62,806 bases of DNA from Acidobacteriaceae bacterium (GCA_030041955.1 JASIAO010000105.1:1-62806), one strand, 5' to 3'; positions 21,747-46,714 are shown, counted from the first letter of the stretch. Notes: generated by a model from the letters alone, not told the origin. Made by a program: numbers and translations.

Positions 21747-21762
21747 TGTGACGTGAATCACA
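21747..21762. promoter_or_regulatory. CRP/FNR-type palindrome TGTGA-CGTGAA-TCACA (site 1 of 5)
   Basis: Perfect TGTGA-N6-TCACA in the gap between the hyhL 3' end and the Zn-ribbon gene. It overlaps a second dyad GTGACG..CGTCAC. Confidence 0.45.
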
Positions 21763-21922
21763 TCGTCACAGCTTCCGGAAGCGGTGCTCTGAAAGCGTTC
21801 CCAGCGCATCGATGGAGTATTCAGCTTATGTCTGGTTCTGAATTTGTCAACATCATTTTTGAATTTTTCAGGGAAAAACAGGCGCCAGGGATGCGCACGG
21901 GGTGATTTGGCGCGGGTCCTGC

Positions 21923-23227
21923 TCACCGGCGGTTGATGCGCAGCCTGAGAGCGTGCACTGAGCACGAGATGCAGGGATCGTAGTTGCGAACCAGCTTCTC
22001 GCAGGCGTCGAGGATTTCCGCGTCTGTCCGGTCGAGGATGCCCGGAATCAGCAGGCGCAGGTCGTCTTCGATCCTGCGGCAGTTCTGCGCGGTGGGCGGA
22101 ACGATTCTGGCGCTCTGCACCAGTCCCTGATCGTCGATGCGATACCGGTGATAGAGCAGCCCCCGCGGCGCTTCAGTCGCAGCGCAGCCTTCGGCGGCGT
22201 GGACGGTGTAATCGAGCCGCGGCGGGTCCGGCTCGCGATAAGCGTCGATCACGCGCAGGCTGTCTTCGCAGGCCTGCACCATTTCCACGGCGCGGGCGAC
22301 GATTCCGGCATACGGATTGGAGCATGGCCATGAGACGCTGCTTTCGTCCGCGGCCTGGCGCGCCCCCGGCAGGAGGTGCTGATAATTCAGGTTGAGGCGC
22401 GAGAGCGGCCCAGCCAGATAACTCGATCCATGGTCGGCTCGCACGGAATGTAATGCCGTCGAATGCGCCACATGCTCTTCGAGAAACACCTGCTCGAATT
22501 CTCTGATGGAAAGGTCCAGGCCCCGGGATGAGACGATGCGGCCGTCACCCATGGCGTATTCGTGGGGATGGGCGAGCGCGACAAATTCGTACTCCGGGGT
22601 GAATTCCGGCAGGGTCAGAGAAGAGACGAGCCGAACGGTCTCGATGGATGCCTCGAGCGCCGACTCGACGTGCGGGCGCAGCTCCAGCACCTCGCTGCGG
22701 CGCGGAGCCTTCCAGAATCCGCCGATGCAGACTGAAAGCGGGTGTACGGCCCGGCCGCCGAGCAGAGTGGTCATTTCATTGCCGATTTTCTTCAGTTCCA
22801 GGCCGCGCCGCACCAACTCCGGCTTTTCGGCGGCCAAAGCAAGACCGCCTGACTTACCGAAGAAGTCGGGCAGCTGCAGCAGATAGATATGCAGCGCATG
22901 GCTCTCGATCCATTCCGCACAGAAGAGGAGACGGCGGAGAGCGCGGATCTCCGCCCCCGGAGCGATGCCGAGCGCCGATTCAATGGCCTGAACGGAGGTG
23001 AGCTGGTGAGCGATGGGACAGATGCCGCAAATGCGGGCGGTCATATCCGGGACTTCGCGGATCGAGCGCCCGCGCAGGAACGCCTCGAAGAACCGTGGCG
23101 GCTCATAGATGTCGAGCTTCAAATCGGCCAGCCGGCCGTCGCGCACATCGAGACGCAGACCTGCTTCACCCTCGATTCGGCTCATCAGGTCGAGACGGAT
23201 GGTTCGAACTCCGCTCGTGGTCGTCAT
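21923..23227 (-). CDS. hyhL: [NiFe]-hydrogenase large (alpha) subunit, group 3b (sulfhydrogenase/NADP-coupled) type
   Basis: 434 aa. The N-terminal RICGICPIAH and C-terminal DPCISCSVH Ni-Fe ligand motifs are present, with a short cleavable tail. ATGA overlap with the small-subunit gene. Confidence 0.88.
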   Translation of the reverse strand: MTTTSGVRTIRLDLMSRIEGEAGLRLDVRDGRLADLKLDIYEPPRFFEAFLRGRSIREVPDMTARICGICPIAHQLTSVQAIESALGIAPGAEIRALRRLLFCAEWIESHALHIYLLQLPDFFGKSGGLALAAEKPELVRRGLELKKIGNEMTTLLGGRAVHPLSVCIGGFWKAPRRSEVLELRPHVESALEASIETVRLVSSLTLPEFTPEYEFVALAHPHEYAMGDGRIVSSRGLDLSIREFEQVFLEEHVAHSTALHSVRADHGSSYLAGPLSRLNLNYQHLLPGARQAADESSVSWPCSNPYAGIVARAVEMVQACEDSLRVIDAYREPDPPRLDYTVHAAEGCAATEAPRGLLYHRYRIDDQGLVQSARIVPPTAQNCRRIEDDLRLLIPGILDRTDAEILDACEKLVRNYDPCISCSVHALRLRINRR

Positions 23228-24012
23228 AGCGGTGCTTTCTCCAGCTTCTCCGCGGCGGAACGGAACTCCTCGGACCCGCCTGCGAATCCGTTGAGTAGTC
23301 TCAGCGTTTCGGCCCGCGAAACGCCTCTGGCCATAAGGTTCTGACAGAGCGAATCCGGGTTGGCGCTCTCCATGGGTCCGTAACAGCCGAAGCAGCCACG
23401 ATGGAAGCTGGGACACAAAGCTCCGCATCCAGCCTGAGTGATGGGACCGAGACAGGCAACTCCGGCGGAGACCAGAACACAAACGGTTCCGCTGCGTTTG
23501 CACTCGACGCACACCGAATATCGGGGCAGCTCGGGGGCTCGACCGATCAGCAGCGCTGTGAGCACATCCAGCAACTGCCGCCGCGAGATCGGGCAGCCAC
23601 TGATGGCAAAATCCACCGTCACATGCGCTGCGACCGGCGTCGATTGGGCGAGGGTATGGATGTATGAGGGATTAGCGTAGATCGCCCGCGTATATTCCTC
23701 CACGTCCGCCGTGTTGCGCAGCGCCTGGATGCCGCCGGCATTCGCGCAGGCGCCGAGGGTGATCAGGGTCTGTGAGTTTCTGCGAATCTCGCGTAGGCGC
23801 TGCAGGTCGGTTTCGGTGGTAACCGACCCCTCCACCAGCGCCACATCGTAGGGTCCATCGAGATCTTGCGAAGTTGCCTCGGGGAAATAGCAGATCTCCA
23901 CCTGGTCCGCGATGTCGAGGAGCTCATCTTCGAGATTCAGCAACTGCAACTGGCAGCCGTCGCAGGAAGCGAGCTTAAAGATTGCCAGGCGCGGCTTTGC
24001 ATTCTCGGCCAT
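23224..24012 (-). CDS. hyhS: [NiFe]-hydrogenase small (delta) subunit, NuoB-like, no Tat signal
   Basis: MAENAKPRLAIFKLASCDGCQLQLL...LGACANAGGIQ. GGGAGGAG RBS. Cytoplasmic type. Confidence 0.85.
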   Translation of the reverse strand: MAENAKPRLAIFKLASCDGCQLQLLNLEDELLDIADQVEICYFPEATSQDLDGPYDVALVEGSVTTETDLQRLREIRRNSQTLITLGACANAGGIQALRNTADVEEYTRAIYANPSYIHTLAQSTPVAAHVTVDFAISGCPISRRQLLDVLTALLIGRAPELPRYSVCVECKRSGTVCVLVSAGVACLGPITQAGCGALCPSFHRGCFGCYGPMESANPDSLCQNLMARGVSRAETLRLLNGFAGGSEEFRSAAEKLEKAPL

Positions 24013-24869
24013 CAGAACTCCTCCCTTCCAAAGAACGGTTCGATTGCAGAGAAGCGAAACACAGGCCCCTGTTTGCAAATAAAGACCGGACCAAGCTGGC
24101 AATGTCCGCAAAAGCCGATGGCGCATTTCATGTTGCGTTCCATCGAAACGTAAATTGCCTCTTTGGGAATGCGCCGGGCCATGGCCTCATAGATTACGAA
24201 GCGCAACATGATCTCCGGGCCGCAGGAGAACACCAGCGTCCTGCGGTGGTCGAGCCGCGTCCGATAGAAGGCCATGGGGATGACGCCAACCTGACCCTTC
24301 CAGGTTTCGTCGGCGCGATCCACGCTGACGAACATCTCAATTCCGCCGTCTTGCCAGTTCTCGAATTCGCCTGTGTAGAGCAAGTCCTGAGGGGTGCGGC
24401 CGCCGTAGAGAACCAGCACGCGACCGAAGCGATCACGGTGGTGCAATGTTTCCAGGATGACCGGCCGGAGCGGCGCCAGGCCGATTCCACCGGCGACGAT
24501 CATCAGGTCCTTGCCTTCGGCCAGCTGCATCGGCCAGGGATTGCCGTATGGCCCGCGCAGCCCGACTACGTCTCCAATCTTCAGGCGCCCGATGGCACGC
24601 GTCACACTGCCGGCATAGCGAATGGTGTGCTCCATGACCCTGGGTGTGCCGGGATCGGAGCAGATAGAAATGGCGACTTCGCCGAACCCGGGCAGGCAGA
24701 TCATGTTGAACTGCCCGGCGGCGAAGCCGAGCGGCGCATCGGGATCGGTGTATTCGAGCGAGAACGTGGAAATGCCGTAGGCCTCCGGACGAATCGCACG
24801 TACAACCGCAGGGCGCGGCAGCATTGGATCCATCATCGTAACTGGCTCGACCATGGTTACCTGGCTCAT
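24012..24869 (-). CDS. hyhG: Hydrogenase gamma subunit: FAD/NAD(P)-binding oxidoreductase with C-terminal 2Fe-2S motif
   Basis: FNR-like fold (GQFNMI.., MIVAGGIGLAPL) and C-terminal CAIGFCGHCQLG. ATGA overlap with hyhB. Confidence 0.85.
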   Translation of the reverse strand: MSQVTMVEPVTMMDPMLPRPAVVRAIRPEAYGISTFSLEYTDPDAPLGFAAGQFNMICLPGFGEVAISICSDPGTPRVMEHTIRYAGSVTRAIGRLKIGDVVGLRGPYGNPWPMQLAEGKDLMIVAGGIGLAPLRPVILETLHHRDRFGRVLVLYGGRTPQDLLYTGEFENWQDGGIEMFVSVDRADETWKGQVGVIPMAFYRTRLDHRRTLVFSCGPEIMLRFVIYEAMARRIPKEAIYVSMERNMKCAIGFCGHCQLGPVFICKQGPVFRFSAIEPFFGREEF

Positions 24870-25993
24870 CGTGCCCCCGCTGTCCGGAGCCTGTTCAGCT
24901 CTTCGGTGATATCGATGCCCACGGGACACCACGCAATGCAGCGGCCGCATCCCACGCAGCCGGAACGCCCGAACTGGTCGATCCATGCCCCGAGCTTGTG
25001 GGTCATCCACTGGCGAAAGCGAGACTTGATGGTTGGCCGGCTGTTGCCGCCATGCACGTGGGAAAAGTCGAGAATGAAGCAGGAATCCCACACGCGCGTG
25101 CGCGTCGTGCGATTTCCGTTCAGATCGCTGTGGTCTTCGACGGTGGAACAGAAGCAGGTCGGGCAGACCAGCGTGCAGTTCGCGCAGGAAAGGCAACGTT
25201 CGGCGATTGTGTCCCAGTAAGGATGGTCGATTCTCTCGTAAAGCAACTGAGGCAGATCGCTGGTCGTCACCTGGCGCTGGATCAGGCGTTCGGTGCGCTG
25301 CGTGACCTGCGCGGCGCGGCCAAGGTCAAAGGCGCTGGCCGGTTGCCAGTCGATGCCCGCAAGAGCATTGGAGCCGGCCTCCGAGCCGATCTCCATTACA
25401 AATGAATCCGGAAGTTCCGTTAATGCGAGGTCGAATCCGGAGCGCACGTGCGGGCCCGTGCTCATGGACGTACAGAAGCAGGTCGACGCCGCAGTGCTGC
25501 AATTGACGGCAAGCATGAAAACCCTCTGGCGACGGTGCGCATAATGAGGATCGCCAATCGTTCCATTAACGAACACCTCATCCTGGAGGGCGATGGCATG
25601 CAGATCGCACGACTTCACCCCGATAAAGGCAAAGGGCGGCGAATCGTCTGACGCTGGAGTGAAGATCCAGCCGTCACCGTTTCTCCTCGCAGTCAGCAAA
25701 TCGGAGCGCGCCGGAAAGAGGTAACGCTTCCACGAATCGGGCCCGACCGTGCACGCAAAATAATCGGCAGAGTGCGTTGGCAGAAGTCGCGAATTTCCAG
25801 CTTTCTGGTCGAGCAACCGCCCGATCGGAAGCTCGGAAATCTTTTCGAGCGTGCCGAGAATCACGCTGCCATCGCGCACAGTCGGACCGATCAGGCGGAA
25901 GCCGCTGGCCCTCAGATTGTCCAGCACCTGCTGCAGCGTGGGTTTAGGGAAGATCACCGTTGCGGAAACCCGGGGCGTGGGAGAACCGGCCAT
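24866..25993 (-). CDS. hyhB: Hydrogenase beta subunit: 4Fe-4S dicluster protein
   Basis: CLSCANCTLVCPTCFC and CVGCGRCIAWCP ferredoxin motifs. First gene of the four-gene operon. Confidence 0.8.
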   Translation of the reverse strand: MAGSPTPRVSATVIFPKPTLQQVLDNLRASGFRLIGPTVRDGSVILGTLEKISELPIGRLLDQKAGNSRLLPTHSADYFACTVGPDSWKRYLFPARSDLLTARRNGDGWIFTPASDDSPPFAFIGVKSCDLHAIALQDEVFVNGTIGDPHYAHRRQRVFMLAVNCSTAASTCFCTSMSTGPHVRSGFDLALTELPDSFVMEIGSEAGSNALAGIDWQPASAFDLGRAAQVTQRTERLIQRQVTTSDLPQLLYERIDHPYWDTIAERCLSCANCTLVCPTCFCSTVEDHSDLNGNRTTRTRVWDSCFILDFSHVHGGNSRPTIKSRFRQWMTHKLGAWIDQFGRSGCVGCGRCIAWCPVGIDITEELNRLRTAGAR

Positions 25994-26213
25994 ACCGCCT
26001 CCTCAAGCTGCCAGGAGTGCCGTTGTGTCGAATCTCGCCCGGATTTACCCGGAAGGTTCGGCACGAAGGACAGGCCTTCGCTCACCCGCCGGTGAACAGG
26101 ACAAAAGAAATACCAGCCTCTTCGGCTTGGCTCACCAGTCACACAGGCGAGCGCGGGGTGAAGGTCACTTCCCTAAACCCGGGTAGATCATACGCCGGAT
26201 ACATAGCGAATCA

Positions 26214-26229
26214 AGTGATACAGGTCACT
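26214..26229. promoter_or_regulatory. CRP/FNR-type palindrome AGTGA-TACAGG-TCACT (site 2 of 5)
   Basis: The full dyad is AAGTGA-N6-TCACTT (26213-26230). It lies about 229 nt upstream of the hyhB ATG and about 94 nt upstream of the 26315 gene. AGGTCACTT also occurs at 26162-26170. Confidence 0.4.
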
Positions 26230-26314: not shown

Positions 26315-26635
26315 ATGGAAGGACTCTGGATTGCCAACTTCACAGCAGGTCCGGCGCACGGGAGCGGTATCCTGGTCTTGCGCTCAGGAGAGCTCATCGG
26401 AGGAGACCCTGGTCACACATACAAAGGCAGTTGGCAGGAAGATGGTCCAAGCCTGAATGCCCGCGTACGTGTCGAGCCGTGGCCTCCGGAGGAAGCAAAG
26501 CAGGCCGACATCACAGAAGAGCCTTTTGGGATGACCCTCACAGGCTCCTGCACGGATAAAACTGCCACTCTATACGGTCATCCCGACGGCAAACCGGATC
26601 TGCTCATCACTGTCGAGATGAAACGAGCCGCCTGA
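26315..26635 (+). CDS. Small protein, possibly GrlR-like (lipocalin-fold) family
   Basis: Strong RBS AAGGGAGGAA. GSGILVLRSGELIGGDPGHTYKGSW resembles the G.G..VL..G...GGD....Y.G.Y pattern of GrlR-family proteins. The family call is tentative. Confidence 0.5.
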   Translation: MEGLWIANFTAGPAHGSGILVLRSGELIGGDPGHTYKGSWQEDGPSLNARVRVEPWPPEEAKQADITEEPFGMTLTGSCTDKTATLYGHPDGKPDLLITVEMKRAA

Positions 26636-26771: not shown

Positions 26772-27752
26772 TCAATCAAGACGCGTGAATTTCGCTGGGA
26801 CATTCTCGAAGTCGGAGCGTCCGAGGCCGCGTTCTTCCGCCAGCTTCAGCCACAGCAAGGAATCGCTCTCCAGGTTCCAGAAGGCTTTGGCTGCGTATGC
26901 GTCCAGAGCGACGGGGTCGGTGCCCGCGATCAGCGTCTTTTTCAGCGCGACATCCTCCGGGTTGCCCCCGGTGGGGCCATTCCGCAGCAGCACGCGGTAG
27001 CAGTCGATCAGAGTCAGACTGGGCAGCATGAAGGCAGCCAGATCGACGAGGCTTTGGTGAATCTGCTGATGCAGCCTGTTCCGCTGGCCGCCGAGGATGC
27101 CGTACCAGTTCTTAAAGCCGAGCGTGACGCCGGTTAGCCCGTGATGCTTGGCAATGGGGATGTTGATGAGCTTATCGGCCTCGAGGAATGGCTCGAAGAC
27201 GGGCCAGCTTTGCAGAACAACGCCGCCGAGATCGACTTCGCGGAAACGCGCGGGATCGGGAAGGATGACTTCGGCCCCTTCGACACTGGCCGCGGCCTGA
27301 ATGCCGGAGCGGCGAAAACAGCGCTCGGCTTCGTTGCAGCTCACGTCGGTGACAACCACGCGCCCGGCGCCGGCCTGCCGGCACTGGCGAACCACTTCGG
27401 CGACAATGTCGGGATTTGTATTGGCCGCCTGTTCCGGGGTGCGGTCCCAGGCGATGTTGGGCTTGAGAACAACAACGTCATTGCGCGCGATGAAGCGGCT
27501 GATGCCTCCGAGGTCGACGAAGGCCTGGCGAACCAGAGCGCGGGGATCGTCGCCCTGGACCACCACCATCTGAGGAAGCGCGACGCTGGCCGGAACCGTG
27601 TGATCGCGCTTCGCGTATGCGGCGGCGGTGGCAACGGGGCGCGTGCTGCGCTCCGCAAGCCAGAACGCCGCTCCAGCAGTAACCGCTCCTGCTCCGGCAA
27701 CACGCAAAATCTGCAGCATCGCTTCGCGTCGGGTAATGTGGGTATCGGACAT
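26772..27752 (-). CDS. DUF362 domain protein with Tat-type signal peptide
   Basis: ATG at 27752 gives MSDTHITRREAMLQILRVAGAGAVTAGAAFWLA. The DUF362 core follows (VVLKPNIAW...INIPIAKHH..TGVTLGFKNWYG). Confidence 0.75.
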   Translation of the reverse strand: MSDTHITRREAMLQILRVAGAGAVTAGAAFWLAERSTRPVATAAAYAKRDHTVPASVALPQMVVVQGDDPRALVRQAFVDLGGISRFIARNDVVVLKPNIAWDRTPEQAANTNPDIVAEVVRQCRQAGAGRVVVTDVSCNEAERCFRRSGIQAAASVEGAEVILPDPARFREVDLGGVVLQSWPVFEPFLEADKLINIPIAKHHGLTGVTLGFKNWYGILGGQRNRLHQQIHQSLVDLAAFMLPSLTLIDCYRVLLRNGPTGGNPEDVALKKTLIAGTDPVALDAYAAKAFWNLESDSLLWLKLAEERGLGRSDFENVPAKFTRLD

Positions 27753-27786
27753 ATTCTTCACCGTCCCTCTGGTGTTGTCCTGCTCT

Positions 27787-28260
27787 TCAGAGCCGCCCCT
27801 CGATGCCATGAGCCAGGGCCAGCAGAGCGTCAGCGGGTGCCGGCTCGTACGTTGTGATCCTGACCAGCGTGGGTCCTTTGCGAAAAACCACGCTCTGCAA
27901 GTAAATCCGTCCGGCATCACCCAGCGGCGCCGTCTGGCCTGAAGCGGGTTCGTCATCGAGAATCTTCTTTGCCCCCGTCGCGGTCTTCATGGTGTATACG
28001 TCCACCACAGCTTCCAGCTTTCCCTGGAATTTGTAATCGGACGTCGCTGCGGAGACGACCCCCGCACCGATATACTCGTCCGCACCGCCGTCGAGGTATT
28101 GCCACAAGGTGTCAGCGGTGTAAGTGCGTGTTGGGCCGGTTTTCTCCCATCCAGAGACCAGACCCGAAGAAGGGAACGGATCGGCGGCCTTTCTCCTGCA
28201 ACCCGCTGCGGCACTCACGGCGACAATCAATACGCCAATACAAATCCATCTTGTCTTCAC
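27787..28260 (-). CDS. Lipoprotein of unknown function
   Basis: The GTG start overlaps the polyferredoxin stop (GTGA). The lipobox is VKTRWICIGVLIVAVSAAAGC. The GWEKTGPTRTYTADTLWQYLDGGADEYIG motif recalls an uncharacterised DUF family that I cannot name with certainty. Confidence 0.6.
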   Translation of the reverse strand: MKTRWICIGVLIVAVSAAAGCRRKAADPFPSSGLVSGWEKTGPTRTYTADTLWQYLDGGADEYIGAGVVSAATSDYKFQGKLEAVVDVYTMKTATGAKKILDDEPASGQTAPLGDAGRIYLQSVVFRKGPTLVRITTYEPAPADALLALAHGIEGRL

Positions 28261-29918
28261 GATTGCGCCTTTTCCTTTCTTCGAGTGAGCAGAATCTGGT
28301 TGCTGGGCGATCGGCTCTCCCCGATGCTGGTGACATAAACAGCCGGATGCTCCTGGAGGGGGCAGGCATATTCGCAGGCTCCGCAACCGACACACAGGCT
28401 GGGATCGACGTGTGGCTGCTTCAGCAGCTTGAGGTTGCCAGCGGCGTCCGGGACCTCCACTTGTTCGAGATCAATGGCCTTGGGCGAGACCGGGCACCAT
28501 TCTTCGCAGACCACACAATCGGTGGCCAGTGCCCAGGGCAGGCAACGGCTGCGATCATGGAAGGCTGTGCCCAGGCGCACGGGCTGCGAGTTCTGCTGGC
28601 CGACGCCGACTACCCAGCCCTTTTCGCGGGGCGTGATGTTCCAGATGGCGCCGGTCGGACAGACTTCGGAACAGAGAACGCAGCTTGGCTCGCAATAGCC
28701 GATGCGCGGCGCCAGTACCGGCGTCCACAGGCCTTCCAGGCCCGCTTCGGCGAAAGCGGGCTGCAGCGCATTGTTGGGGCAAACCTTCATACACTCGCAG
28801 CAGCGAATGCAGCGGCCGAGGAACTCCGTTTCCTCGAGTGCGCCGGGCGGGCGGATGAGATGCTCGTTCCGGCTCCTGCCCATTGCCGTTTCGGCGCGCA
28901 GCAGGGGGACTGCGGACAGCCCGGCAGCCAGACCAGCCAGAGCTTTGCGCCGCGGCAGATTCGGGCCCGCGACTTCAGCTCGCTTTCGGAAGAACCGGAA
29001 TCGCAGACTGTGTTGGGGGCAGACGTCGACACAGTTCAGGCACAGGAGGCATTCGGCCTTGTGCCAGGGCGCGGTTCCGATGGGATCGTCGCCTCCCTGG
29101 CAGTGCAGCAGACAGCGATTGCAGTTGTCGCAGCTTGCAGCCTCCTTATGCAGACCGAGGATCGACCAGCGCGCGGCGAAGCCGAGCAGCGCCCCCAAGG
29201 GACACAGCGCGCGACACCAGAACCGCGTTACGCGCAGGTTGAGGGCGAGCAGGACGATCAGGATCAGGCCCAGCAGCGCGCCCAGTTGGAAATGCGGCTG
29301 CCGGAAGTTCAGGACCGTCGCGCTCAGAACTGCGTGAAGGATGGCGGCCGGCGCACGTACTGCGCCGATGGGACTGTGTTCCAGTGGCGTGAGTGCCGCA
29401 TTGGCCGCGTAGTTGAAGGCGGGAAGGATCGACAGCGTCAGCGAACGCACCAGCAGGCTGAAGGGATCGAACCAACCGGCAATTGCGCTGCCGCAAAGGG
29501 CCGCTGCCAGAAGCGCGACCAGAATCGCATACTTGGTTCGCTGCCACGGTTTGTAGCGGTTGGATTCGATCCACTGCCGGCCGCGCTTGCGTTCGGATTG
29601 GAGATTCCCAAAGAAGTGGTGGACGGTGCCTATCGGGCAAATCCAGCCGCAGAAAAAGCGGCCCAGGAACATGACCGGCAGAACTATCAGCAGCGACCAT
29701 GCCAGGCCGCGATAGAGAGCGTGCGTCGCAAGAGCATTTACGAGCGCCGCCAGCGGATCAAACTCAAAAAAGAGGCGAACCGGCCAACGCATCTGTATTT
29801 CGCCCGTCGCGCCAGTGGCACCGCGAAATCCAGTCCTGACAAGAAGCAACAGGAAGAGGAGAAAAAAGAATACCTGCGACGCGCGCCGCAGGTGGATAAG
29901 TCGAATCCTCACAAGCAT
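28257..29918 (-). CDS. Membrane polyferredoxin (NapH/MauN-like N-terminal TM domain plus multiple 4Fe-4S domains)
   Basis: The TM region carries CGWICPIGT and FWCRALCPLG motifs. Six CxxCxxCxxxCP-type clusters follow (CDNCNRCLLHC, CLLCLNCVDVCP, CIRCCECMKVCP, CVLCSEVCP, CVVCEEWCP, CVGCGACEYACP). The preferred start is ATG 29918 (MLVRIRLIHLRRASQVFFF). The raw ORF extends to a GTG at 30071. Confidence 0.8.
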   Translation of the reverse strand: MLVRIRLIHLRRASQVFFFLLFLLLLVRTGFRGATGATGEIQMRWPVRLFFEFDPLAALVNALATHALYRGLAWSLLIVLPVMFLGRFFCGWICPIGTVHHFFGNLQSERKRGRQWIESNRYKPWQRTKYAILVALLAAALCGSAIAGWFDPFSLLVRSLTLSILPAFNYAANAALTPLEHSPIGAVRAPAAILHAVLSATVLNFRQPHFQLGALLGLILIVLLALNLRVTRFWCRALCPLGALLGFAARWSILGLHKEAASCDNCNRCLLHCQGGDDPIGTAPWHKAECLLCLNCVDVCPQHSLRFRFFRKRAEVAGPNLPRRKALAGLAAGLSAVPLLRAETAMGRSRNEHLIRPPGALEETEFLGRCIRCCECMKVCPNNALQPAFAEAGLEGLWTPVLAPRIGYCEPSCVLCSEVCPTGAIWNITPREKGWVVGVGQQNSQPVRLGTAFHDRSRCLPWALATDCVVCEEWCPVSPKAIDLEQVEVPDAAGNLKLLKQPHVDPSLCVGCGACEYACPLQEHPAVYVTSIGESRSPSNQILLTRRKEKAQS

Positions 29919-30056
29919 GGATCGGAGATGCTCCTTTCCTGCCGGAGTGCAAGCGCGCCCTTGGACTGTGGCGAAAACGCAATGCGGCAAAGCGCGGGCA
30001 GCGCGTTCCCAGTCAATGCCCTGGTTCAAGGCTGGCTGGCGTTTCCATTCGCTGTC

Positions 30057-30072
30057 AGTGACCGCCGTCACC
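30057..30072. promoter_or_regulatory. CRP/FNR-type palindrome AGTGA-CCGCCG-TCACC (site 3 of 5)
   Basis: GTGA-N6-TCAC core in the divergent gap between the polyferredoxin operon (ATG 29918) and the SpeE-fusion gene (start 30161). Confidence 0.4.
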
Positions 30073-30160: not shown

Positions 30161-32521
30161 GTGACCCTTCATTTCATCTCCGTTGCGCGCGTCAGGCCGG
30201 CCGCCATCGCGGCGAAGGCGGCTCCGCTACTCGTCGGATTCACTGCGGTCGTCGGGCAGATCGTACTCATGCGGGAAGTCATCATCCTGTTCAGTGGGAA
30301 CGAAATCTCGATGGGGATTGCACTCGCCGCCTGGCTCGTTTGGACGGCGGCCGGAAGCGGCCTTGCCAGCCGGATGCGAACAGGGCGCGTGAGCGCCCGC
30401 CATACGGTTGCGGCACTCCAATGCCTCGCCGGGGCCAGCCTGGTGCCGACCGTGTGGATGCTGCGCGCGGGAAGGGCTGCATTCCAGACGGTGCCGGGTG
30501 AGCTGATTGGCCCGCTACCGATGCTGATCACCACTCTTGTCTGTCTGAGTGTGTTTTGCATTCTCTCGGGGGGCCTCTTCTTGGCCGCCGCGCGCATGGT
30601 CCAGCAGGAGAGCGCTGTTTCGGAGCGAGTCGCCGTGAGCTGGGCTTATGTGCTGGAGGCCGCAGGGTCGGGATTGGGTGGGGTTCTGTGCAGCGTACTG
30701 CTGCTGCGCTTCTTCGGATCGTTCCAGATTGCGGGAATCGTCGCGCTCGTGAACCTGGGCGCGGCGGCGATCCTCTTTTTTCCACTCAAAGGCTGGAAGG
30801 TTGCGATTGCCGCGCTGGCTGTCGCGGCTGTGGCCATTCCCTGGGCGGCCTGGGTTGCGCACAGGCTGGACACGTCCGCGGAGCAGCGTCTGTGGCAGGG
30901 ATTCCACGTCGTGCAATCGCGGAACACGATCTATGGAAACCTGACTGTCGTCGCGACCGGCGATCTGCAAACGATTTACGACAATGGCGTGAAGCTGGCC
31001 AGCATTCCGGATGAGGCCGCAGCCGAAGAGGCCGTTCATTATGCGCTGCTGGAGCATCCTGCGCCGAAAAGCGTTTTGCTGATCGGGGGCGGCGCGAACG
31101 GCAGTGTTCAGCAGGCACTGCGACACCCATCCGTTCGGCGACTCGACTACGTTGAGCTCGATCCCGCGCTGGTGGAAATGTCTCGGCAGATTTCTCCCGG
31201 CTTCGCTCCTTCTCTCTCCGATGCACGCGTGCGGGTGCACATTGCGGATGCGCGGCTTTGGCTGAAGACGACCCCGGAACGGTTCGACGCCATCGTGGTC
31301 GATCTGCCGGATCCCGAGACCGCGCAGCTAAACAGGTTCTACACGGAGGAGTTTTTCCGCTCTGCTCGCGATCACCTCGCACCGGGAGGGATTCTCGGAT
31401 TTCAGGTGCACTCGTCGGAGGAAACCATCAGTCCGGAAATGGCCGATTTCCTGCGCTGCATCGACCGCACGGTACGCGAAGTGTTCCCCTGGGTCGCGAT
31501 CATTCCGGGCGACACGATGCATTTCTTCGCAACGGCGCAGCCAAATGTTGTTACGGAAGACCCGCGGGTTCTGATTGCGAGACTGCAAAGCAGGGGCCTG
31601 CAAACGCAGTATGTGCGGGAATATTTCATCCCCTTCCGGATGATGCCCGACCGCATGGCGCAGGTTCACGCGGTGCTGCAACCTTTGCCGGGAACTCCGG
31701 TCAATCGCGACTTCCGGCCGATTGCCTACTACTTCGATGCGGTCCTGTGGGGCTCCCAGTTCCGCTCGGGATTTTCTCGCGCTTTCGAAGCTGCGGCGCA
31801 GGTCCCTTTTGTCTGGCTGCTCGCAACCGTGGTCATCCTGCTCCTCGCCACTCTCGGCGCGGTGCGATCGGCCGAAAGACACAGGCCCCAGCGAACGGCA
31901 GCGCTGGCGTGCACTGCCCTGACCGGCTACACCCTGATGGCGCTGCAGATCCTCCTGCTGTTCTCGTTCCAGTCCGTGTACGGCTACGTGTATCACGAGC
32001 TTGCTGTGCTCATCGGTCTGTTCATGGCGGGGATTGGGCTGGGAAGCTGGCTCGCGATCCGGCGCATTGCCTGCGCTGATCCCGCTTCATTGATCCGCAC
32101 CGTTGCCGCAAATCAGTTTTTGCTCGCGGCGTCCGCACTGCTGCTGCTGCTGGTGGTTGCTCTGCTTGCACAACACCCTGGGACGCAGAGCGCGCTGTGG
32201 ATCGCGCAACTCGTCTTTCCTTTCCTGGCGCTGCTTTGCGGAATTCTGGGAGGGTATCAGTTTCCGCTGACGAACGAGATTTGCCTTCACGACGCGGTCA
32301 CCCCAGCGCGCACAGGGGTGGTTTACGCGGTGGACCTGCTCGGGGGCAGCGTGGGCGCATTGCTGTTGAGCGCCTACCTCATCCCGGTGTTCGGTTTTTG
32401 GAAAGCAGCATGGTTCACCGCGGCCGTGAGCCTGGCCCCGGCATTTCTGGCCGTATGGGCGGGCCGGGATACAACGATGGCGGCGGAGTTTACCGCTTCT
32501 CCCCAAACACAACAGCGGTAA
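30161..32521 (+). CDS. Polytopic membrane protein fused to a spermidine-synthase-like (aminopropyl/methyltransferase fold) domain
   Basis: 786 aa. By eye there are about 7 hydrophobic helices, then a SpeE-like core (VLLIGGGANGS..VELDPALVEMS..FDAIVVDLPDPETAQLNRFYTEEFF), then about 7 more helices. GTG start. Confidence 0.8.
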   Translation: MTLHFISVARVRPAAIAAKAAPLLVGFTAVVGQIVLMREVIILFSGNEISMGIALAAWLVWTAAGSGLASRMRTGRVSARHTVAALQCLAGASLVPTVWMLRAGRAAFQTVPGELIGPLPMLITTLVCLSVFCILSGGLFLAAARMVQQESAVSERVAVSWAYVLEAAGSGLGGVLCSVLLLRFFGSFQIAGIVALVNLGAAAILFFPLKGWKVAIAALAVAAVAIPWAAWVAHRLDTSAEQRLWQGFHVVQSRNTIYGNLTVVATGDLQTIYDNGVKLASIPDEAAAEEAVHYALLEHPAPKSVLLIGGGANGSVQQALRHPSVRRLDYVELDPALVEMSRQISPGFAPSLSDARVRVHIADARLWLKTTPERFDAIVVDLPDPETAQLNRFYTEEFFRSARDHLAPGGILGFQVHSSEETISPEMADFLRCIDRTVREVFPWVAIIPGDTMHFFATAQPNVVTEDPRVLIARLQSRGLQTQYVREYFIPFRMMPDRMAQVHAVLQPLPGTPVNRDFRPIAYYFDAVLWGSQFRSGFSRAFEAAAQVPFVWLLATVVILLLATLGAVRSAERHRPQRTAALACTALTGYTLMALQILLLFSFQSVYGYVYHELAVLIGLFMAGIGLGSWLAIRRIACADPASLIRTVAANQFLLAASALLLLLVVALLAQHPGTQSALWIAQLVFPFLALLCGILGGYQFPLTNEICLHDAVTPARTGVVYAVDLLGGSVGALLLSAYLIPVFGFWKAAWFTAAVSLAPAFLAVWAGRDTTMAAEFTASPQTQQR

Positions 32522-34001
32522 ACAGGAAGATATCGGTGTCGCTGTCCTTCCAGCACCCGGGGTGCATACCGGCTTTCATGCAGGTTTCTTCCAGGAACCG
32601 GGTGCGATCCCATTTGGCATCCACGGGAACCTGGGGCAGCAGGAGACCCTGGTATTCGCCATTCTTCATCAGCAGGCCGTGCTCACCGATCCTGATCTGT
32701 TGCAGGTCGAGGACTCGGCGCAGAGGAGAAAGAACGGAGATTTCGTATTGGAGCCGCGGCAGCTCGGACGCCGCGACCGGGCGAAATCGCGTGTCGCGCA
32801 GCGCGGCCAGCGTTGCCGTGTCGCGGACAGCCATATAAAGCGGCTTGATGGCTGAGGTGTAGCCGACACAGCCACGCAACTCTCCCGACTCTCTGAGCGT
32901 GACGAACACACCGCGCTCCTGATTGAGGTCATCGTCACCCGCTGGCGGCGGCTCGTACGGTTCCCCCTGGCGCACGGCGTACTCGACGGAGATGCGTGCG
33001 ATGGAGAGCAGCTGGTTCCTGTCCGCGGGCGACAGCGAGAAGAGCTGTTCGACCATCTGCCGCTCCCCGGTTTTCACCAGCGCAACCGCGCTGTATCCGA
33101 CGACCCGGGAGCGATCGCCGCTGGTATCTCCGGAATTGGCGTAGCGCAACACCTGAGCCTGGTCCGCTCCCATGCGCTCGGCGGCGATCATGGCGGCTAC
33201 GATCGGGGCCCCGCCACAGGCTTCCCAGACACGCGTCTGGAAGTTCTGGGACATGCTGAAGTAGTCCCACTCCTCGATCGCCTGCAGCGTCTTATGATCG
33301 ATTTTCTCTGCCTCGTCGTACGGGTGATAGTGGGACAGGTCGGAACTGGCGACGATCAGCGTGTCGCCATCGTGAATCAGCTTTGCCAGAGCCACGCCCA
33401 GCGCCCGGCTGCTTTCATAGTTCTGATCGCCCATGACAACGGGCACGAGCGTGAAGTTGCCCAGCACATGCTGCAGCCACGGCAATTCCACCTCCACCGC
33501 GTGCTCCGTGCCCTGAGGCGTCGGCAAGTGCCCACGATCGGAGAGACGGATCGAGGGGTTCGATTTGGCCAGTTTCCTCGCAAAGTCTTTGTCGACCGGA
33601 ACTGTCCCGAGCGGCGTGACATATCCATCGCCGTCGTAAACGGAGGTGAAATCGAAAGCTTCGAAATGCGATGGAGCAATGACGACCACGCGCGCATAGT
33701 GCCGGCCCCTGAGGGCGGCGTAAGTCCAGGCCGCAACCGGTCCGGAATAGGGATAGCCGGCGTGCGGCGCGACAACGGCGACGATGGAGCCATGGATCTC
33801 CGGCGGCGCGGCCTGCGCCAGCATGGCGTCCATCATGGCCGTGAGCGCTTTCGGGTCCGCCGGATAAAAGCTGCCCGCGACTCCAGCGGGCCGAAGCTTT
33901 TCGAGGTCAGCCGCCCACCCGGCTCGGACGGCCGGGATCGCTGCGATACCGAACAGCAGTGCTGTCATGAAACCACTTCCGATCCGCGTTCCGCGTTTCA
34001 T
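32490..34001 (-). CDS. amrB: AmmeMemoRadiSam system protein B (MEMO1-like) fused to protein A (AMMECR1 domain), with N-terminal Sec signal peptide
   Basis: ATG at 34001 (GGGGAGGG RBS) gives MKRGTRIGSGFMTALLFGIAAIPAVRA|GWA. The Memo motifs follow (AGSFYPADP, VAPHAGYPYSGP, SSDLSHYH), then AMMECR1 (GVFVTLRESGELRGCVGY...LLPQV). Confidence 0.85.
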   Translation of the reverse strand: MKRGTRIGSGFMTALLFGIAAIPAVRAGWAADLEKLRPAGVAGSFYPADPKALTAMMDAMLAQAAPPEIHGSIVAVVAPHAGYPYSGPVAAWTYAALRGRHYARVVVIAPSHFEAFDFTSVYDGDGYVTPLGTVPVDKDFARKLAKSNPSIRLSDRGHLPTPQGTEHAVEVELPWLQHVLGNFTLVPVVMGDQNYESSRALGVALAKLIHDGDTLIVASSDLSHYHPYDEAEKIDHKTLQAIEEWDYFSMSQNFQTRVWEACGGAPIVAAMIAAERMGADQAQVLRYANSGDTSGDRSRVVGYSAVALVKTGERQMVEQLFSLSPADRNQLLSIARISVEYAVRQGEPYEPPPAGDDDLNQERGVFVTLRESGELRGCVGYTSAIKPLYMAVRDTATLAALRDTRFRPVAASELPRLQYEISVLSPLRRVLDLQQIRIGEHGLLMKNGEYQGLLLPQVPVDAKWDRTRFLEETCMKAGMHPGCWKDSDTDIFLFTAVVFGEKR

Positions 34002-34024
34002 CCACGTACCCTCCCCGCGCGTGC

Positions 34025-35260
34025 TCAGACGTGCCACACCCCCGGAATGAGCTGCCCGCAGTAAGGGCAGGTTCCCTTGCGGATCAGCATCTGCGTTACT
34101 TCCAGCCCCATGCGCTGCACGAGGATGTGTCCGCACTTCGGGCAATATGTGCTTTCGGCAGGGTGGCCGGGCACATTGCCGATGTACACGTAGTGCAGTC
34201 CCTCCGCGTCGGCAATCTGTTTGGCGCGTTCCAGTGTCGGCACCGGAGTGATGGGAAGGTTCTTCAGAAGATATTCGGGATGAAACTGCGAAAAGTGCAA
34301 AGGAACGTCGGCTCCGACGTTGTTCCTGACCCACTGCGCCAGGCCGCGGAATTCTGCGTCGCCATCGTTCAGCGTCGGCACCACAAGATAAACGATCTCC
34401 AGCCATTTGCCGGTCTTGTGCAGCGTGACGATCGAATCGAGCACAGGCTTGAGCTGGCCGCAAACCACCTGCCGGTAATACGACTCGGAGAAAGATTTCA
34501 AATCGATCTTGACGGCATCCATCTTGCCGTACGCCGCTCGCAGCGCTTCGTCCTGGATGTAGCCGTTGGAAACAACAATGCTGCGGATGCCTGCGGCATG
34601 ACCGGCATCCGCCGTATCCATCAGGTATTCGATAAAGATCACCGGCTCGCTGTAGGTGTAGGCGATGGTGGGGCAGCTATATTGCGTTGCCAGCTGGGCG
34701 ACTCGTTGCGGCGGTGCGTAGTCTGCCGGCACCTGTTCCGGGCGCACCTGGGAGATGTCCCAGTTCTGGCAGAACTTGCAGTTGACGTTGCAGCCGGCTG
34801 TGGCCAGCGAGAGGGCGAGCGTACCGGGAAGATAGTGGAAGAAGGGTTTCTTCTCGATCGGGTCGATATGTGCGGCGCACACCCGCGAGTGCACCAGCGT
34901 GTAATAGGTCCCGCCGCGGTTCTCGCGAACCCCGCAATAGCCGCGCTCGCGATCGCCCACGCTGCATTCGCGCGGGCACAATTTGCACTTGATCCTTCTG
35001 TTCGGAAGCTTCTGGTAGAAGCGCGCTTCCACCGTGAACTGCGAGTCGTCCTGGTTCTGCGCAGCCGGTGACAGAGACATTGCGTCCAGAGGATGTGCCA
35101 TGGTGGAGATGGTTCCGGCGGCTCCCGCGCAGAGAGCGCAGCGCAGAAACGAACGCCGGTCAGGGAGACACGATGTGCCTGCGGAAGCGAATCTCTCGCT
35201 GTCGAGGAACCCCGCTCCCGCCAAACTTGAATCGGGCTGCAAATAATGTTCGCGTGACAT
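34025..35260 (-). CDS. amrS: AmmeMemoRadiSam system radical SAM enzyme with N-terminal twin-arginine (Tat) type signal
   Basis: The radical SAM cluster motif CNVNCKFCQNW and the upstream CKLCPRECSVGDRERGYCGVRENR segment are typical of this family. The N-terminus carries DRRSFLRCALCAGAAGTISTMAHP. GGAGG RBS lies 7 nt upstream. Confidence 0.85.
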   Translation of the reverse strand: MSREHYLQPDSSLAGAGFLDSERFASAGTSCLPDRRSFLRCALCAGAAGTISTMAHPLDAMSLSPAAQNQDDSQFTVEARFYQKLPNRRIKCKLCPRECSVGDRERGYCGVRENRGGTYYTLVHSRVCAAHIDPIEKKPFFHYLPGTLALSLATAGCNVNCKFCQNWDISQVRPEQVPADYAPPQRVAQLATQYSCPTIAYTYSEPVIFIEYLMDTADAGHAAGIRSIVVSNGYIQDEALRAAYGKMDAVKIDLKSFSESYYRQVVCGQLKPVLDSIVTLHKTGKWLEIVYLVVPTLNDGDAEFRGLAQWVRNNVGADVPLHFSQFHPEYLLKNLPITPVPTLERAKQIADAEGLHYVYIGNVPGHPAESTYCPKCGHILVQRMGLEVTQMLIRKGTCPYCGQLIPGVWHV

Positions 35261-35272
35261 CGCTCGCCTCCA

Positions 35273-36292
35273 TCACGCCAGGTCTGTCTCGACCCTCTCG
35301 ATTCGCTGCGGATCGTTGATGCCAAGACGATGCTGCGGGTCCGCCGCCGTGGCCAGATAGCGGGGGGCTCGCTCCTCGGCTTCGAGCGCCTTCAGTCCTT
35401 CTTCTGCCCGCTTGCGCTCGATCATCTGCCATCCGGTGGTGTCGAGGGCCACAGGATCCTGCGACGCCAGCAGAGCGTTGGGTTGCCAGCTGTATTGGGG
35501 CTTGTAAGCAGGTCCTCCCTCGTAGCACGCCGTGGTCGCGTCGCAGATGGACAGACGCATCCTGCTGCGGATTTCCGGCAGCATGTTCACATCCGCGATA
35601 TAGGGATCGCAGCCGTTGGGGTGGTATTTGTTGGGATTGTGGATAGTGCCGTACATGTTCTTGAGCGCGATGGTGACGCCCGCGCCATCGTGATCCTTCA
35701 GCACCGGAACGTTGATCAGGACGTCGCAGCGCTGCGTGAGAATCTTCGATAGCCGGCTGCCAACGCTGCCCCATGTTGCCAGATCGTCTTCGTAACCCAT
35801 CCGGTCAGTGCCGAAGCACTGGACCCGATTTCCCGCGATACAGACATGAAAGCCGGCGCGTTCCAGTTCATCGGTGTCGCGATCCCAGATCACGATGTCA
35901 GCAGCTCGGATTCCGGCTTGCTGCAGCCGCTCGCAAATCGCTTCGGCCAACCGCGGGCTGCCGGAAAAGCCGCGGCCACCCAGAGCGTTTACCTTCAGTC
36001 CAACCATTTGCCCCGGACGCACGATCTTCTTCCAGGCCTCGTCCGGGCGACTGACCCGGAGAAGGGTCTCCATCGTCCGGTCCAGCAGGCTCAGCATGCG
36101 TTGCGAATCCACCGTGGAGTCCGAGCCGCGCAATTGAGGATCCTGCGCAATGACCACCCTGGATCGGATCAGCGGGAGATTCTGTGCGCCAGCAGCGGAA
36201 TGGGAGATTCCGTCGCCCGCAGCGACAGCAACGGCACTTGCCAGGCAATTCTTCAGGAATCTTCTTCGCCCCGTGATGGGCTCCTGGCGCAT
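35273..36292 (-). CDS. DUF362 domain protein with Tat signal peptide
   Basis: MRQEPITGRRRFLKNCLASAVAVAAG is followed by the DUF362 core (LKVNALGG...INVPVLKDHDGAGVTIALKNMYG). First gene of the operon with amrS and the Memo-AMMECR1 fusion. Confidence 0.8.
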   Translation of the reverse strand: MRQEPITGRRRFLKNCLASAVAVAAGDGISHSAAGAQNLPLIRSRVVIAQDPQLRGSDSTVDSQRMLSLLDRTMETLLRVSRPDEAWKKIVRPGQMVGLKVNALGGRGFSGSPRLAEAICERLQQAGIRAADIVIWDRDTDELERAGFHVCIAGNRVQCFGTDRMGYEDDLATWGSVGSRLSKILTQRCDVLINVPVLKDHDGAGVTIALKNMYGTIHNPNKYHPNGCDPYIADVNMLPEIRSRMRLSICDATTACYEGGPAYKPQYSWQPNALLASQDPVALDTTGWQMIERKRAEEGLKALEAEERAPRYLATAADPQHRLGINDPQRIERVETDLA

Positions 36293-36446: not shown

Positions 36447-36462
36447 AGTGATGAGCGTCACA
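36447..36462. promoter_or_regulatory. CRP/FNR-type palindrome AGTGA-TGAGCG-TCACA (site 4 of 5)
   Basis: About 160 nt upstream of the DUF362-amrS operon start codon (36292). Confidence 0.4.
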
Positions 36463-36522
36463 GCTTTCCGGATGCGGTTGCGTGCGCTCGAATACCCGGA
36501 ACCGGATGCTCGGGGCCTCGGC

Positions 36523-41600: not shown

Positions 41601-41613
41601 CCGACTGTTTCGC

Positions 41614-41654
41614 GTCGTCCTGCCTGGCGGGCCTGGCTCGCCGGGCAAGACGAC
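41614..41654. terminator. Long imperfect hairpin between convergent genes
   Basis: GTCGTCcTGCCtGGCG...CGCCgGGCAaGACGAC. No clear U-tract. Confidence 0.35.
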
Positions 41655-41731
41655 CCAGTGGGTATCAGCACCCCGGGTATTCGGGGTCTCATGCAGTCGC
41701 GAGATCCGCGAACTCGACACGCAGAACCGCC

Positions 41732-42640: not shown

Positions 42641-42813
42641 GCAGCGAACGTGGTGCTGCAGCGCAGCATATGCCCTGAGATTACCTCCGCTCCCCCTGAG
42701 TTGTCCAACCCTGATTTGCTGCCGGTCGCGCGCTGGAATCTCTGACAGGCGCTTACCCCTCCCCGCTTAGCCTCAGCGGAGGAATTTGCAGGCGCGGTAC
42801 TGCTCGGACTGCG

Positions 42814-43047
42814 TCACCGGCGAAGTGCTGCCTTGCGGTGGGGACCTGCACTTTTAGCGGCGTGCTTCGGGGGCTCAGTCTCGACGGCGTGTGGCTCACG
42901 ATCAGCATCTTTGGCGAACAAATATTCCTCCTCGACGAGCCAGTACACCTCCAGCCAGTGATCGAGGCTGTGTTCGTGACCGGAGTCGTGCGAAGACGGG
43001 TGGGGCTTTTCCGGAACCCCGGAAATGTGTTCCATTAGGGCAGGCAT
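42814..43047 (-). CDS. Small His-rich hypothetical protein
   Basis: 77 aa, MPALMEHISGVPEKPHPSSHDSGHEHSLDHW... Strong GGAGG lies 5 nt upstream of the ATG. A perfect CRP-type site lies about 85 nt upstream. Confidence 0.5.
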   Translation of the reverse strand: MPALMEHISGVPEKPHPSSHDSGHEHSLDHWLEVYWLVEEEYLFAKDADREPHAVETEPPKHAAKSAGPHRKAALRR

Positions 43048-43123
43048 AATCGCCTCCGGTTAGATCGCCTGTTCGGGATCAATCAGAACTGGCCACAGAT
43101 CAGCACAAAGACCGGTGTCGCGC

Positions 43124-43139
43124 TGTGATGGCCATCACA
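43124..43139. promoter_or_regulatory. CRP/FNR-type palindrome TGTGA-TGGCCA-TCACA (site 5 of 5)
   Basis: Perfect 18-nt dyad CTGTGATGGCCATCACAG (43123-43140) in the 1-kb gap between the SDR gene and phaA. Confidence 0.45.
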
Positions 43140-46712: not shown

Positions 46713-46714
46713 GG

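Follow-up and report, generated by a model that had tools for sequence, protein, structure and literature searches.

Conserved GTGA-N6-TCAC palindromes in front of hydrogenase and AmmeMemoRadiSam operons of Terriglobales: putative operators of a Crp/Fnr-type redox regulon

Does a palindrome that recurs between the genes of one acidobacterial contig mark the operators of a common regulator, and if so, what kind of protein and which programme would it serve? The contig, 62.8 kb from an Acidobacteriaceae bacterium of the order Terriglobales (GCA_030041955.1, JASIAO010000105.1:1-62806; the whole stretch is here called the window), carries the dyad GTGA-N6-TCAC in front of operons that include those for a [NiFe]-hydrogenase and for the AmmeMemoRadiSam module. 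A sequence-only reading of the window had attributed this arrangement to one Crp/Fnr-family regulator. We found that the dyad is enriched between genes, conserved before orthologous genes, oriented towards its target and held at a fixed spacing to promoter-like elements. From these features we infer the protein family, activation and the signal: with moderate confidence, we regard the palindromes as operators of one trans-encoded Crp/Fnr-type Class II activator over a redox regulon. The arrangement is repeated in dozens of related soil Acidobacteria, and control of these genes by one common regulator is very likely, with low oxygen or redox stress as its probable trigger. Acidobacteria are among the most abundant soil bacteria and, to our knowledge, regulation in this group is almost unstudied.

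Rescanning of the window revealed exactly five copies of GTGA-N6-TCAC, with cores starting at positions 21748, 26215, 30058, 36448 and 43125. The five 16-mers listed in the sequence-only reading were exact in coordinates and sequence, and its two perfect copies of TGTGA-N6-TCACA correspond to sites 1 and 5. Dinucleotide-preserving shuffles of the window contained 0.65 copies on average, and five copies were reached in 0 of 100 shuffles. Genes were mapped with a self-trained codon model combined with Pfam and NCBIfam; calling based only on the GC content of third codon positions was dropped as unreliable at 61% GC. On this map all five dyads fall between genes, and the gene neighbours originally assigned to each of them are correct. 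Non-coding DNA amounts to 6,994 nt (GC 0.58) and contains all five dyads, where 5,000 shuffles predict 0.092 (Poisson P~5e-8); in the ~56 kb of coding DNA there are none. The dyad is thus ~54-fold enriched between genes, and within the window it is not spread evenly over coding and non-coding sequence. Likewise, the initial observation that no copy lies inside a coding sequence withstood a rescan by exact match and by a position weight matrix (PWM), neither of which uncovered a missed copy. The PWM was trained on 40 dereplicated sites from other species only; at a threshold of ≥9 bits it returned the five dyads and one candidate with a single mismatch, and no match in coding DNA. This candidate sixth site (GTGCCCGGCATCAC on the minus strand, 1170-1183; 12.2 bits) is intergenic, in the gap between a methyltransferase gene (193-1068, minus strand) and an amine-oxidase-like gene (1561-3828, plus strand), and no convincing -10 element was seen next to it.

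Conservation was assessed in 59 loci from different GTDB species that are related to the window via its SpeE-fusion gene. Over 1.07 Mb, these loci contain 58 exact dyads, roughly five times as many as chance would give; since the relatives share ancestry, species counts are not fully independent. In an unbiased enumeration of 3,328 dyads (a 4-mer, a spacer of 0 to 12 nt and the reverse-complement 4-mer) over 52 operon-upstream regions of related Terriglobales species, GTGA-N6-TCAC ranked first. It was present in 26 of the 52 regions, against 1.6 in random segments of the same loci, while the runner-up reached 10. The runner-up, TGCG-N8-CGCA, lies inside the N-terminal coding sequence of the polyferredoxin gene and was set aside as a coding artefact. 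Global alignment of the polyferredoxin upstream regions proved unsuitable, as their flanks are too divergent, and dyad enumeration and site-anchored profiles were used in its place. All five window sites have counterparts before orthologous genes in other species, also where the gene order is altered, and all five positions are thus conserved in orthologous promoters. The arms of the dyad are kept while spacers and flanks diverge, the pattern that selection leaves on a dyad bound by a protein.

A profile of 27 sites, anchored on the dyad and oriented by the downstream gene, reads GTGAY-N4-nTCAC, with a one-sided (A/T)G(A/C)AA at positions 15-19 and nAnnAT at 37-43. The first core base is G in 27/27 sites, position 5 is C or T (A in 0/27), and position 10 is T in 1/27. 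Among 66 oriented sites that bear the extension, a hexamer with A at its second and T at its sixth position (A2/T6) begins at position 37 or 38 in 68%, compared with ~5% at other offsets. An alignment of 18 hyhB upstream regions shows a conserved CACTTGAC(G), 16 nt and TATCAT or TATGAT, and because of this alignment we read the one-sided extension as a sigma70 -35-like hexamer. The hexamer begins at the last C of the dyad or one base after it (CTGACA, CTGAAA and TTGATT in the window). The -10-like hexamer begins 22-23 nt after the dyad, whose centre is 29.5-30.5 nt upstream of the -10. This spacing would place the dyad centre at about -41.5 to -42.5 relative to the predicted starts, which is the Class II activator position. 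For sites 1 to 5, starts are predicted on the minus strand at ~21713, ~26180, ~30022, ~36413 and ~43090. A dyad of 10 bp centre to centre near -41.5 with GTGA half-sites is a hallmark of Crp/Fnr Class II promoters. Furthermore, strong dyads tend to be paired with poor -35 hexamers (CAGAAA, CAGCAA), and degenerate dyads with TTGACG. Activation is probably the mode of action, rather than repression, since the spacing is fixed within 1 nt across unrelated promoters and since the best dyads accompany poor -35 hexamers.

The hydrogenase operon shows this architecture on the minus strand of the window. Site 2 (AGTGACCTGTATCACT, 26214-26229, minus strand; exact match) precedes hyhB, and a predicted sigma70-type promoter was derived from the hyhB alignment (26187-26214), with the -35 TTGATT at 26214-26209, a 16-nt spacer and the -10 TATGAT at 26192-26187. 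The predicted transcription start is at ~26180, leaving a leader of ~190 nt. The operon hyhB-hyhG-hydS-hydL (21923-25993, minus strand) encodes a group-3b-type (sulfhydrogenase-like) [NiFe]-hydrogenase according to Pfam. It has a four-subunit architecture, and the best NCBIfam matches are the sulfhydrogenase families HydA/ShyA, HydD and HydB, all under their equivalog cut-offs. Retrieval with HyhB yielded 60 metagenome loci and, after dereplication, 43 upstream regions; an exact dyad precedes hyhB in 9 of the 43, against 0.75 in controls, and these include lineages at 45-50% HyhB identity. In five loci (L076, L086, L088, L091 and L096) an extra TCAC stands 8 nt before the hyhB dyad (TCAC-N8-GTGA-N6-TCAC); it may point to a third half-site or to the binding of a second protein.

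On the distal side of site 2 lies a conserved, divergently oriented open reading frame (ORF) for a GrlR-like protein of 106 amino acids (26315-26635, plus strand), which has no match to a Pfam or NCBIfam family. Homologs with 45-76% identity occur beside hydrogenase loci, and the ORF is on the site-distal side in the window, L061, L073 and L081. Site 2 may also act on this divergent gene as a second target; no -10 was found at the Class II offset when the site is read towards it. The hyhB leader itself (25994-26186, minus strand) contains blocks kept in more than 10 relatives (GTGCCGAACC; TCCGACACA..CGCCAC; GGAGGCGAyATGG) and may represent either a small ORF or a leader with a regulatory role. 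Rfam returned no match anywhere in the window, including the hyhB leader and the gap upstream of phaA.

Site 3 (GGTGACGGCGGTCACT, 30057-30072, minus strand; exact match) lies in the gap between the polyferredoxin and SpeE-fusion genes and precedes the former, with a predicted -35-like CTGACA (30058-30053) and a -10-like CAGCCT (30034-30029) on the minus strand. Its target operon (26772-29990, minus strand) consists of genes for a NapH/NapG-like polyferredoxin (29990-28257; Pfam, NCBIfam NapG/NapH) and a DUF362 protein (27956-26772). An exact dyad stands directly before the polyferredoxin ortholog in 18 related loci, which represent at least three gene arrangements. In many species the site heads a polyferredoxin-DUF362-AmrS-Memo/AMMECR1 operon; in the window, L001, L043, L045 and L050 it heads, on either strand, a polyferredoxin-DUF362-DUF362 operon, and the polyferredoxin-DUF362 gene order of the window recurs in these four loci. 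GTGAACCCAGTCAC sites found ~580 nt upstream of DUF362b in L004, L018, L048 and L058 have coding-like flanks and were left out of the profile.

Site 4 (TGTGACGCTCATCACT, 36447-36462, minus strand; exact match) has the top PWM score of the window (23.0 bits). A predicted -35-like CTGAAA (36448-36443) and a predicted -10 TACATC (36425-36420) follow on the minus strand. The operon behind it (32490-36292, minus strand; Pfam, NCBIfam) encodes a DUF362 protein (36292-35273), AmrS (35260-34025) and a Memo-AMMECR1 fusion (~34037-32490). The AmmeMemoRadiSam proteins scored over the curated cut-offs (the radical SAM enzyme AmrS with TIGR04337, 386 against 220 bits; protein B, Memo, with TIGR04336, 273 against 26; protein A, AMMECR1, with TIGR04335, 175 against 99), with the A and B components fused in one ORF. 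Where DUF362-AmrS occurs without a preceding polyferredoxin gene, a site with at most one mismatch and a TG/AG extension was found in 28/33 species, against 2.7% of matched controls.

Site 1 (TGTGATTCACGTCACA, 21747-21762, minus strand; exact match) follows the hydrogenase large-subunit gene and precedes, in the orientation of its dyad, a gene for a Zn-ribbon protein. The predicted -10 GACACT (21720-21725, minus strand) begins 22 nt past the dyad, and the predicted start is at ~21713. The target operon (20430-21487, minus strand; Pfam, NCBIfam) comprises the Zn-ribbon gene (21487-21203; 94 amino acids, with the start taken from database protein P0121) and a gene for a hemerythrin-domain protein that is weakly RIC/YtfE-like (21137-20430). 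The exact sequence TGTGA-N6-TCAC precedes the Zn-ribbon ortholog in 3/3 independent loci (L125, L126/127 and L128-130), where AAGACT, CACACT and GATACT stand at the -10 offset of GACACT. The pair of Zn-ribbon and hemerythrin genes is kept in L125 and L126. Sites 1 and 4 have a distal flank of ~20 nt in common (21762-21785 and 36462-36483), CCGC(T/A)TCCGGAA(A)GCTGTGAC, which holds the palindrome TTCCGGAA; this flank is not conserved in relatives.

Site 5 (TGTGATGGCCATCACA, 43124-43139, minus strand; exact match) most likely belongs to a small gene for a His-rich protein of 77 amino acids (42814-43047, minus strand). It lies 84 nt upstream of this ORF and 512 nt upstream of phaA, and its -10-like hexamer, TGATCT, is weak. 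The His-rich gene is preceded by a site in four arrangements (the window, L122/123, L120/121 and L124). Two further species (L120 and L122) keep the site at -506 from phaA, and the TCACAG extension is kept on the His-rich side only. Regulation of phaA from site 5 is disfavoured, as no -10 is found at the Class II offset in that direction, the phaA start is 512 nt off, and a separate conserved TGC-rich block sits nearer to phaA. In L120, the site at 9488 (-506 from phaA) has no adjoining His-rich gene, which has moved beside phaR and has its own site at 15129; a role of the first site towards phaA or a phaA leader is therefore still conceivable. By their orientation, the most likely targets are hyhB rather than the GrlR-like gene for site 2, the polyferredoxin gene rather than the SpeE fusion for site 3, and the His-rich gene rather than phaA for site 5.

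The His-rich protein has no match to a Pfam or NCBIfam family; its core HDSGHEHSLDHWLEVYWLVEEEYLF is conserved (L122:9181-9411; L120:15221-15397; L124:~1594-1701), the dyad always precedes the gene, and the product may be a metal- or redox-related small protein. A gene for a short-chain dehydrogenase/reductase (42640-41732) downstream of it may be co-transcribed. The gap upstream of phaA (43139-43643, especially ~43400-43560) contains blocks kept in L120, L122 and L124 (the TGC-rich aTGCggtggTGCcgcTGCcatgTGCgtc; CGTGCCGGAGTCGCAGAGT), which may be phaA's own promoter or an operator for PhaR, encoded at 48006-48587. The polyhydroxybutyrate (PHB) cluster at 43644-48587 is complete, with phaA, phaB, a class-III-type phaC, a phaE-like gene, a phasin-like ORF and phaR, and is near an isocitrate lyase gene (50570-51886); these genes fit carbon and redox overflow metabolism. 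Elsewhere in the window, an arsenic-resistance cluster (5578-8525) comprises genes for an ACR3-type (SBF) transporter, an ArsC-like low-molecular-weight phosphatase, an ArsM-like S-adenosylmethionine (SAM) methyltransferase and a divergent ArsR.

Which programme might the dyad serve? In relatives, the same oriented architecture precedes genes for acetyl-CoA hydrolase/transferase (six species), 2-oxoacid:ferredoxin oxidoreductase, a tandem universal stress protein (Usp), an acyl/acetyl-CoA synthetase-like enzyme, glutamate dehydrogenase, cyclopropane-fatty-acid synthase, an Fe-S aldo-keto reductase, a NuoL/MrpA-type subunit and an NfnA/PyrK-type flavoprotein. A Usp gene comes after the Zn-ribbon gene in L128-L130. 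With the hydrogenase, the polyferredoxin and the hemerythrin as further members and the PHB genes as neighbours, this regulon reads as a low-oxygen or reductive-stress programme. A hypoxia or redox theme had already been suggested in the sequence-only reading, and the relatives' Usp, 2-oxoacid:ferredoxin oxidoreductase, acetyl-CoA transferase and NfnA-like genes as well as the RIC-like hemerythrin fit it. In Acidobacterium capsulatum at 0.1 µM O2, usp genes were induced up to 56-fold, por, gdhA and acetate-forming genes were induced as well, and acs went down (PMC11636273). The same study invokes an NADH/NAD+ imbalance at nanoxia (PMC11636273). By analogy, these transcriptomic data back a low-oxygen theme.

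The mechanism that we favour can be put as follows. A single dimeric transcription factor, encoded in trans, would bind the palindromes as its operators; most likely it belongs to the Crp/Fnr family and recognizes half-sites with CRP-type (GTGA, Arg180-like) specificity. At each sigma70-type promoter the operator would adjoin a -35-like hexamer of weak to moderate strength and have one base in common with it. Bound with the dyad centre ~41.5-42.5 bp before the predicted start, the factor would engage RNA polymerase and act as an activator. It would thereby tie together the NAD(P)-coupled group-3b-type hydrogenase, the NapGH-like polyferredoxin and DUF362 proteins, the AmmeMemoRadiSam operon, the Zn-ribbon/hemerythrin pair and the His-rich protein. 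In relatives it would also govern the Usp, 2-oxoacid:ferredoxin oxidoreductase, acetyl-CoA transferase, NfnA-like and Mrp/NuoL-like genes. As its signal, oxygen limitation or reductive (NAD(P)H/ferredoxin) stress is likely. Co-control of hydrogenase and AmmeMemoRadiSam, as first proposed for this locus, is well supported at the cis level because of the intergenic restriction of the dyad, the lack of missed copies in coding sequences and the orthologous conservation.

The site type also bears on the AmmeMemoRadiSam module. The AMMECR1 and Memo families extend to humans, and their functions are poorly understood. Polyferredoxin and DUF362 genes are the first genes of the AmrS-Memo/AMMECR1 operon in L005, L007, L008, L010, L013, L016, L020-L022, L030, L036, L038, L044 and L052, with the module at ~12.3-18.9 kb of the full 22-kb loci. 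Since they head the AmrS operon in many species, the two proteins look like integral parts of AmmeMemoRadiSam, and plausibly they are its electron supply. Tentatively, and with somewhat less confidence than we place in the operators themselves, we suggest that AmmeMemoRadiSam is a core member of a Terriglobales low-oxygen/reductive-stress regulon, in which a quinol-linked NapGH-like polyferredoxin and DUF362 would feed the radical SAM enzyme, and a redox- or O2-sensing Crp/Fnr-like activator would also turn on the fermentative hydrogenase. If true, this would be the first physiological context in bacteria for the AMMECR1/Memo families. We found no literature on this regulon or on the regulation of AmmeMemoRadiSam, and a comparative-genomics paper on Acidobacteria mentions neither Crp/Fnr nor group 3b. 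The main value of the operators thus lies in a first regulatory context for AmmeMemoRadiSam. A common operator makes the module testable, through its induction together with the hydrogenase on shortage of O2 or of electron acceptors and its working with the NapGH-like polyferredoxin and DUF362. In addition, the PWM and the promoter model can be used to predict from metagenomes how Acidobacteria of peat and soil respond to low oxygen.

Which protein binds the dyad was addressed by homology searches. No Crp/Fnr gene is present among the window proteins, in agreement with the original proposal that the regulator is encoded elsewhere, and phmmer searches with the CRP and FNR proteins of E. coli gave no match in the window or the 59 loci. 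A profile of three Crp/Fnr sequences, run over 1.6 Mb, detected genes only in distant hydrogenase lineages (L103, L099 and L093/94), beside 3b-hydrogenase operons; these proteins are analogues and not the regulator sought. Distant 3b-hydrogenase operons (L083-L118, e.g., L101:7096-7560 and L087:1698-2234) carry a standalone ORF of 155-200 amino acids with a cyclic-nucleotide-binding domain between hyhB and hyhG, and in the close relative L070 (4319-4957) an ORF consisting only of such a domain stands beside hydL. The regulators encoded in the window itself are of local type (MarR, ArsR, LysR, PhaR and two extracytoplasmic function [ECF] sigma factors); nothing links them to the dyad, although no test was aimed at them. 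A Crp/Fnr-family protein with CRP-type specificity is our best inference because of the half-site identity, the 10-bp dyad spacing, the Class II geometry and the precedent of HcpR, a CRP/FNR-family regulator of Desulfovibrio. The C or T at position 5, never A, resembles a CRP-type GTGAT rather than a Rex-type GTGAA half-site. An FNR box (TTGAT-N4-ATCAA) was rejected, as it would have T where the first core base is invariantly G.

Several observations weigh against a Crp/Fnr-type activator of these promoters. With regard to the sites, the commonest form of site 4 in relatives is GTGC-N6-TCAC, with one mismatch, and many close relatives have a degenerate dyad (GTGn-N6-GCAC) before hyhB, beside a near-consensus -35. 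The distal flanking T/A of the classical TGTGA/TCACA is not conserved in the 27-site profile, in which an outer T is weakly present. The starts are predicted, and a repressor, too, could act from a site that overlaps the -35 region. With regard to the protein, no Crp/Fnr gene was found in ~1.1 Mb around the loci of close relatives. The recognition helices of the distant-lineage Crp/Fnr proteins (HETVIR, RWQVSH) differ from that of CRP (RETVGR), and their loci are without an exact site. Finally, the A. capsulatum nanoxia paper and its supplements mention no hydrogenase, AMMECR1, radical SAM, DUF362, hemerythrin or Crp (PMC11636273).

Alternatively, the dyad may be bound by a dimeric regulator of another, possibly uncharacterized, family, acting as activator or repressor, with a convergent likeness to the CRP box. 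No Crp/Fnr gene could be tied to the sites, what is conserved per half-site amounts to the 4-bp core and Y, and at the AmmeMemoRadiSam-operon sites the distal arm tolerates GTGC or GTGT. The dyad spacing, the placement at ~-41.5 and the GTGA half-sites, however, typify Crp/Fnr Class II promoters, and a closely similar regulon has already been ascribed to a Crp/Fnr protein (PMC545781), so that we consider this alternative unlikely, though it is the strongest competitor.

A Rex-type repressor that senses NADH/NAD+ and blocks the -35 region until the ratio rises is more doubtful still. The GTGA-N6-TCAC frame is also found in Rex operators (TTGTGAA-W4-TTCACAA; PMC2883068), the dyad overlaps the -35 region, and the NADH/NAD+ imbalance invoked for A. 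capsulatum at nanoxia would suit such a sensor. The hydrogenase, the NfnA-like protein, 2-oxoacid:ferredoxin oxidoreductase and acetyl-CoA metabolism resemble published Rex regulons. The inner bases that define a canonical Rex operator are nevertheless absent from the 27-site profile (A at position 5 and T at position 10, see above), which excludes it, and the outer TT/AA is not conserved. The fixed spacing to the -10 and the pairing of the best dyads with poor -35 hexamers are typical of an activator, and family scans found no Rex-type domain among the window proteins.

It is very improbable that the conserved element is the promoter of an alternative sigma factor, with TCAC-TGAAA as its -35 and an incidental GTGA arm. 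The proximal arm and the extension are indeed the most invariant part of the element, and the window encodes the two ECF sigma factors. Yet the distal GTG is kept at exactly 10 bp in essentially all orthologous promoters, and the extension fits a sigma70 -35 (CTGACA, TTGATT, TTGACG) at 16-17 nt from a TAnnnT-like -10; ECF promoters have different -10 motifs. Least probable of all is a compositional coincidence or a non-regulatory repeat (a REP or MITE element or a terminator hairpin): although the dyad specifies 8 bases only and sites 1 and 4 have their extra flank in common, this explanation is effectively refuted by the dyad enumeration, the intergenic P value and the conservation of site 4, the dyad is kept across species while spacers vary, its 4-bp stem has no T-run and is not a terminator, and no repeat family covers the sites, nor is the flank of sites 1 and 4 kept in relatives.

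How does the proposed Crp/Fnr-type regulon compare with known systems? In E. coli, the CRP box is TGTGA-N6-TCACA and the FNR box TTGAT-N4-ATCAA, and a Class II site is centred at -41.5. The sites described here have in common with Class II CRP/FNR promoters the inverted repeat of 10 bp centre to centre, the core of the CRP box, a dyad that abuts or overlaps the -35 and a predicted centre at ~-41.5 to -42.5. Like FNR, the factor would apparently gather anaerobic and redox functions into one regulon. Unlike the E. coli CRP system, this one is acidobacterial, the distal outer T/A is not kept, and the targets belong to redox and fermentation metabolism instead of carbon catabolism. Since a palindrome at -41.5 is a textbook mechanism, the advance lies in regulon content and taxon, not in kind.

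The closest parallel in content is HcpR of Desulfovibrio, which recognizes TTGTGA-N6-TCACAA and has polyferredoxin, ferredoxin and hydrogenase targets (PMC545781). Its regulon was predicted by comparative genomics by Rodionov et al. in 2004, with activation predicted where sites abut the -35, and Arg180 of HcpR specifies G (PMC545781). The GTGA-N6-TCAC core, the polyferredoxin, ferredoxin and hydrogenase targets and the sites abutting the -35 are common to both systems. The TT/AA flanks are absent here, and the acidobacterial regulon includes AmmeMemoRadiSam, DUF362, the 3b hydrogenase, Zn-ribbon/hemerythrin and the His-rich protein, none of them being reported for HcpR. Neither hcp nor an adjacent hcpR turned up in the annotated window and the relatives' loci, where no search was aimed at hcp.

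Rex regulons have the same GTGA-N6-TCAC frame and likewise include hydrogenases, ferredoxin- or NAD(P)H-linked enzymes and fermentation. They differ in that the inner A/T and outer TT/AA of Rex operators are missing here and in that Rex is a repressor with variably placed operators, whereas the acidobacterial sites keep a fixed Class II geometry. Mycobacterial DosR, finally, controls a hypoxia regulon with a group-3b hydrogenase and Usp, but belongs to the LuxR-type response regulators and has an unrelated motif of 20 bp. There, a fermentative 3b hydrogenase, universal stress proteins and redox-balancing enzymes are induced together on exhaustion of oxygen, and the regulon proposed here groups similar functions, a likeness that is physiological and not mechanistic.

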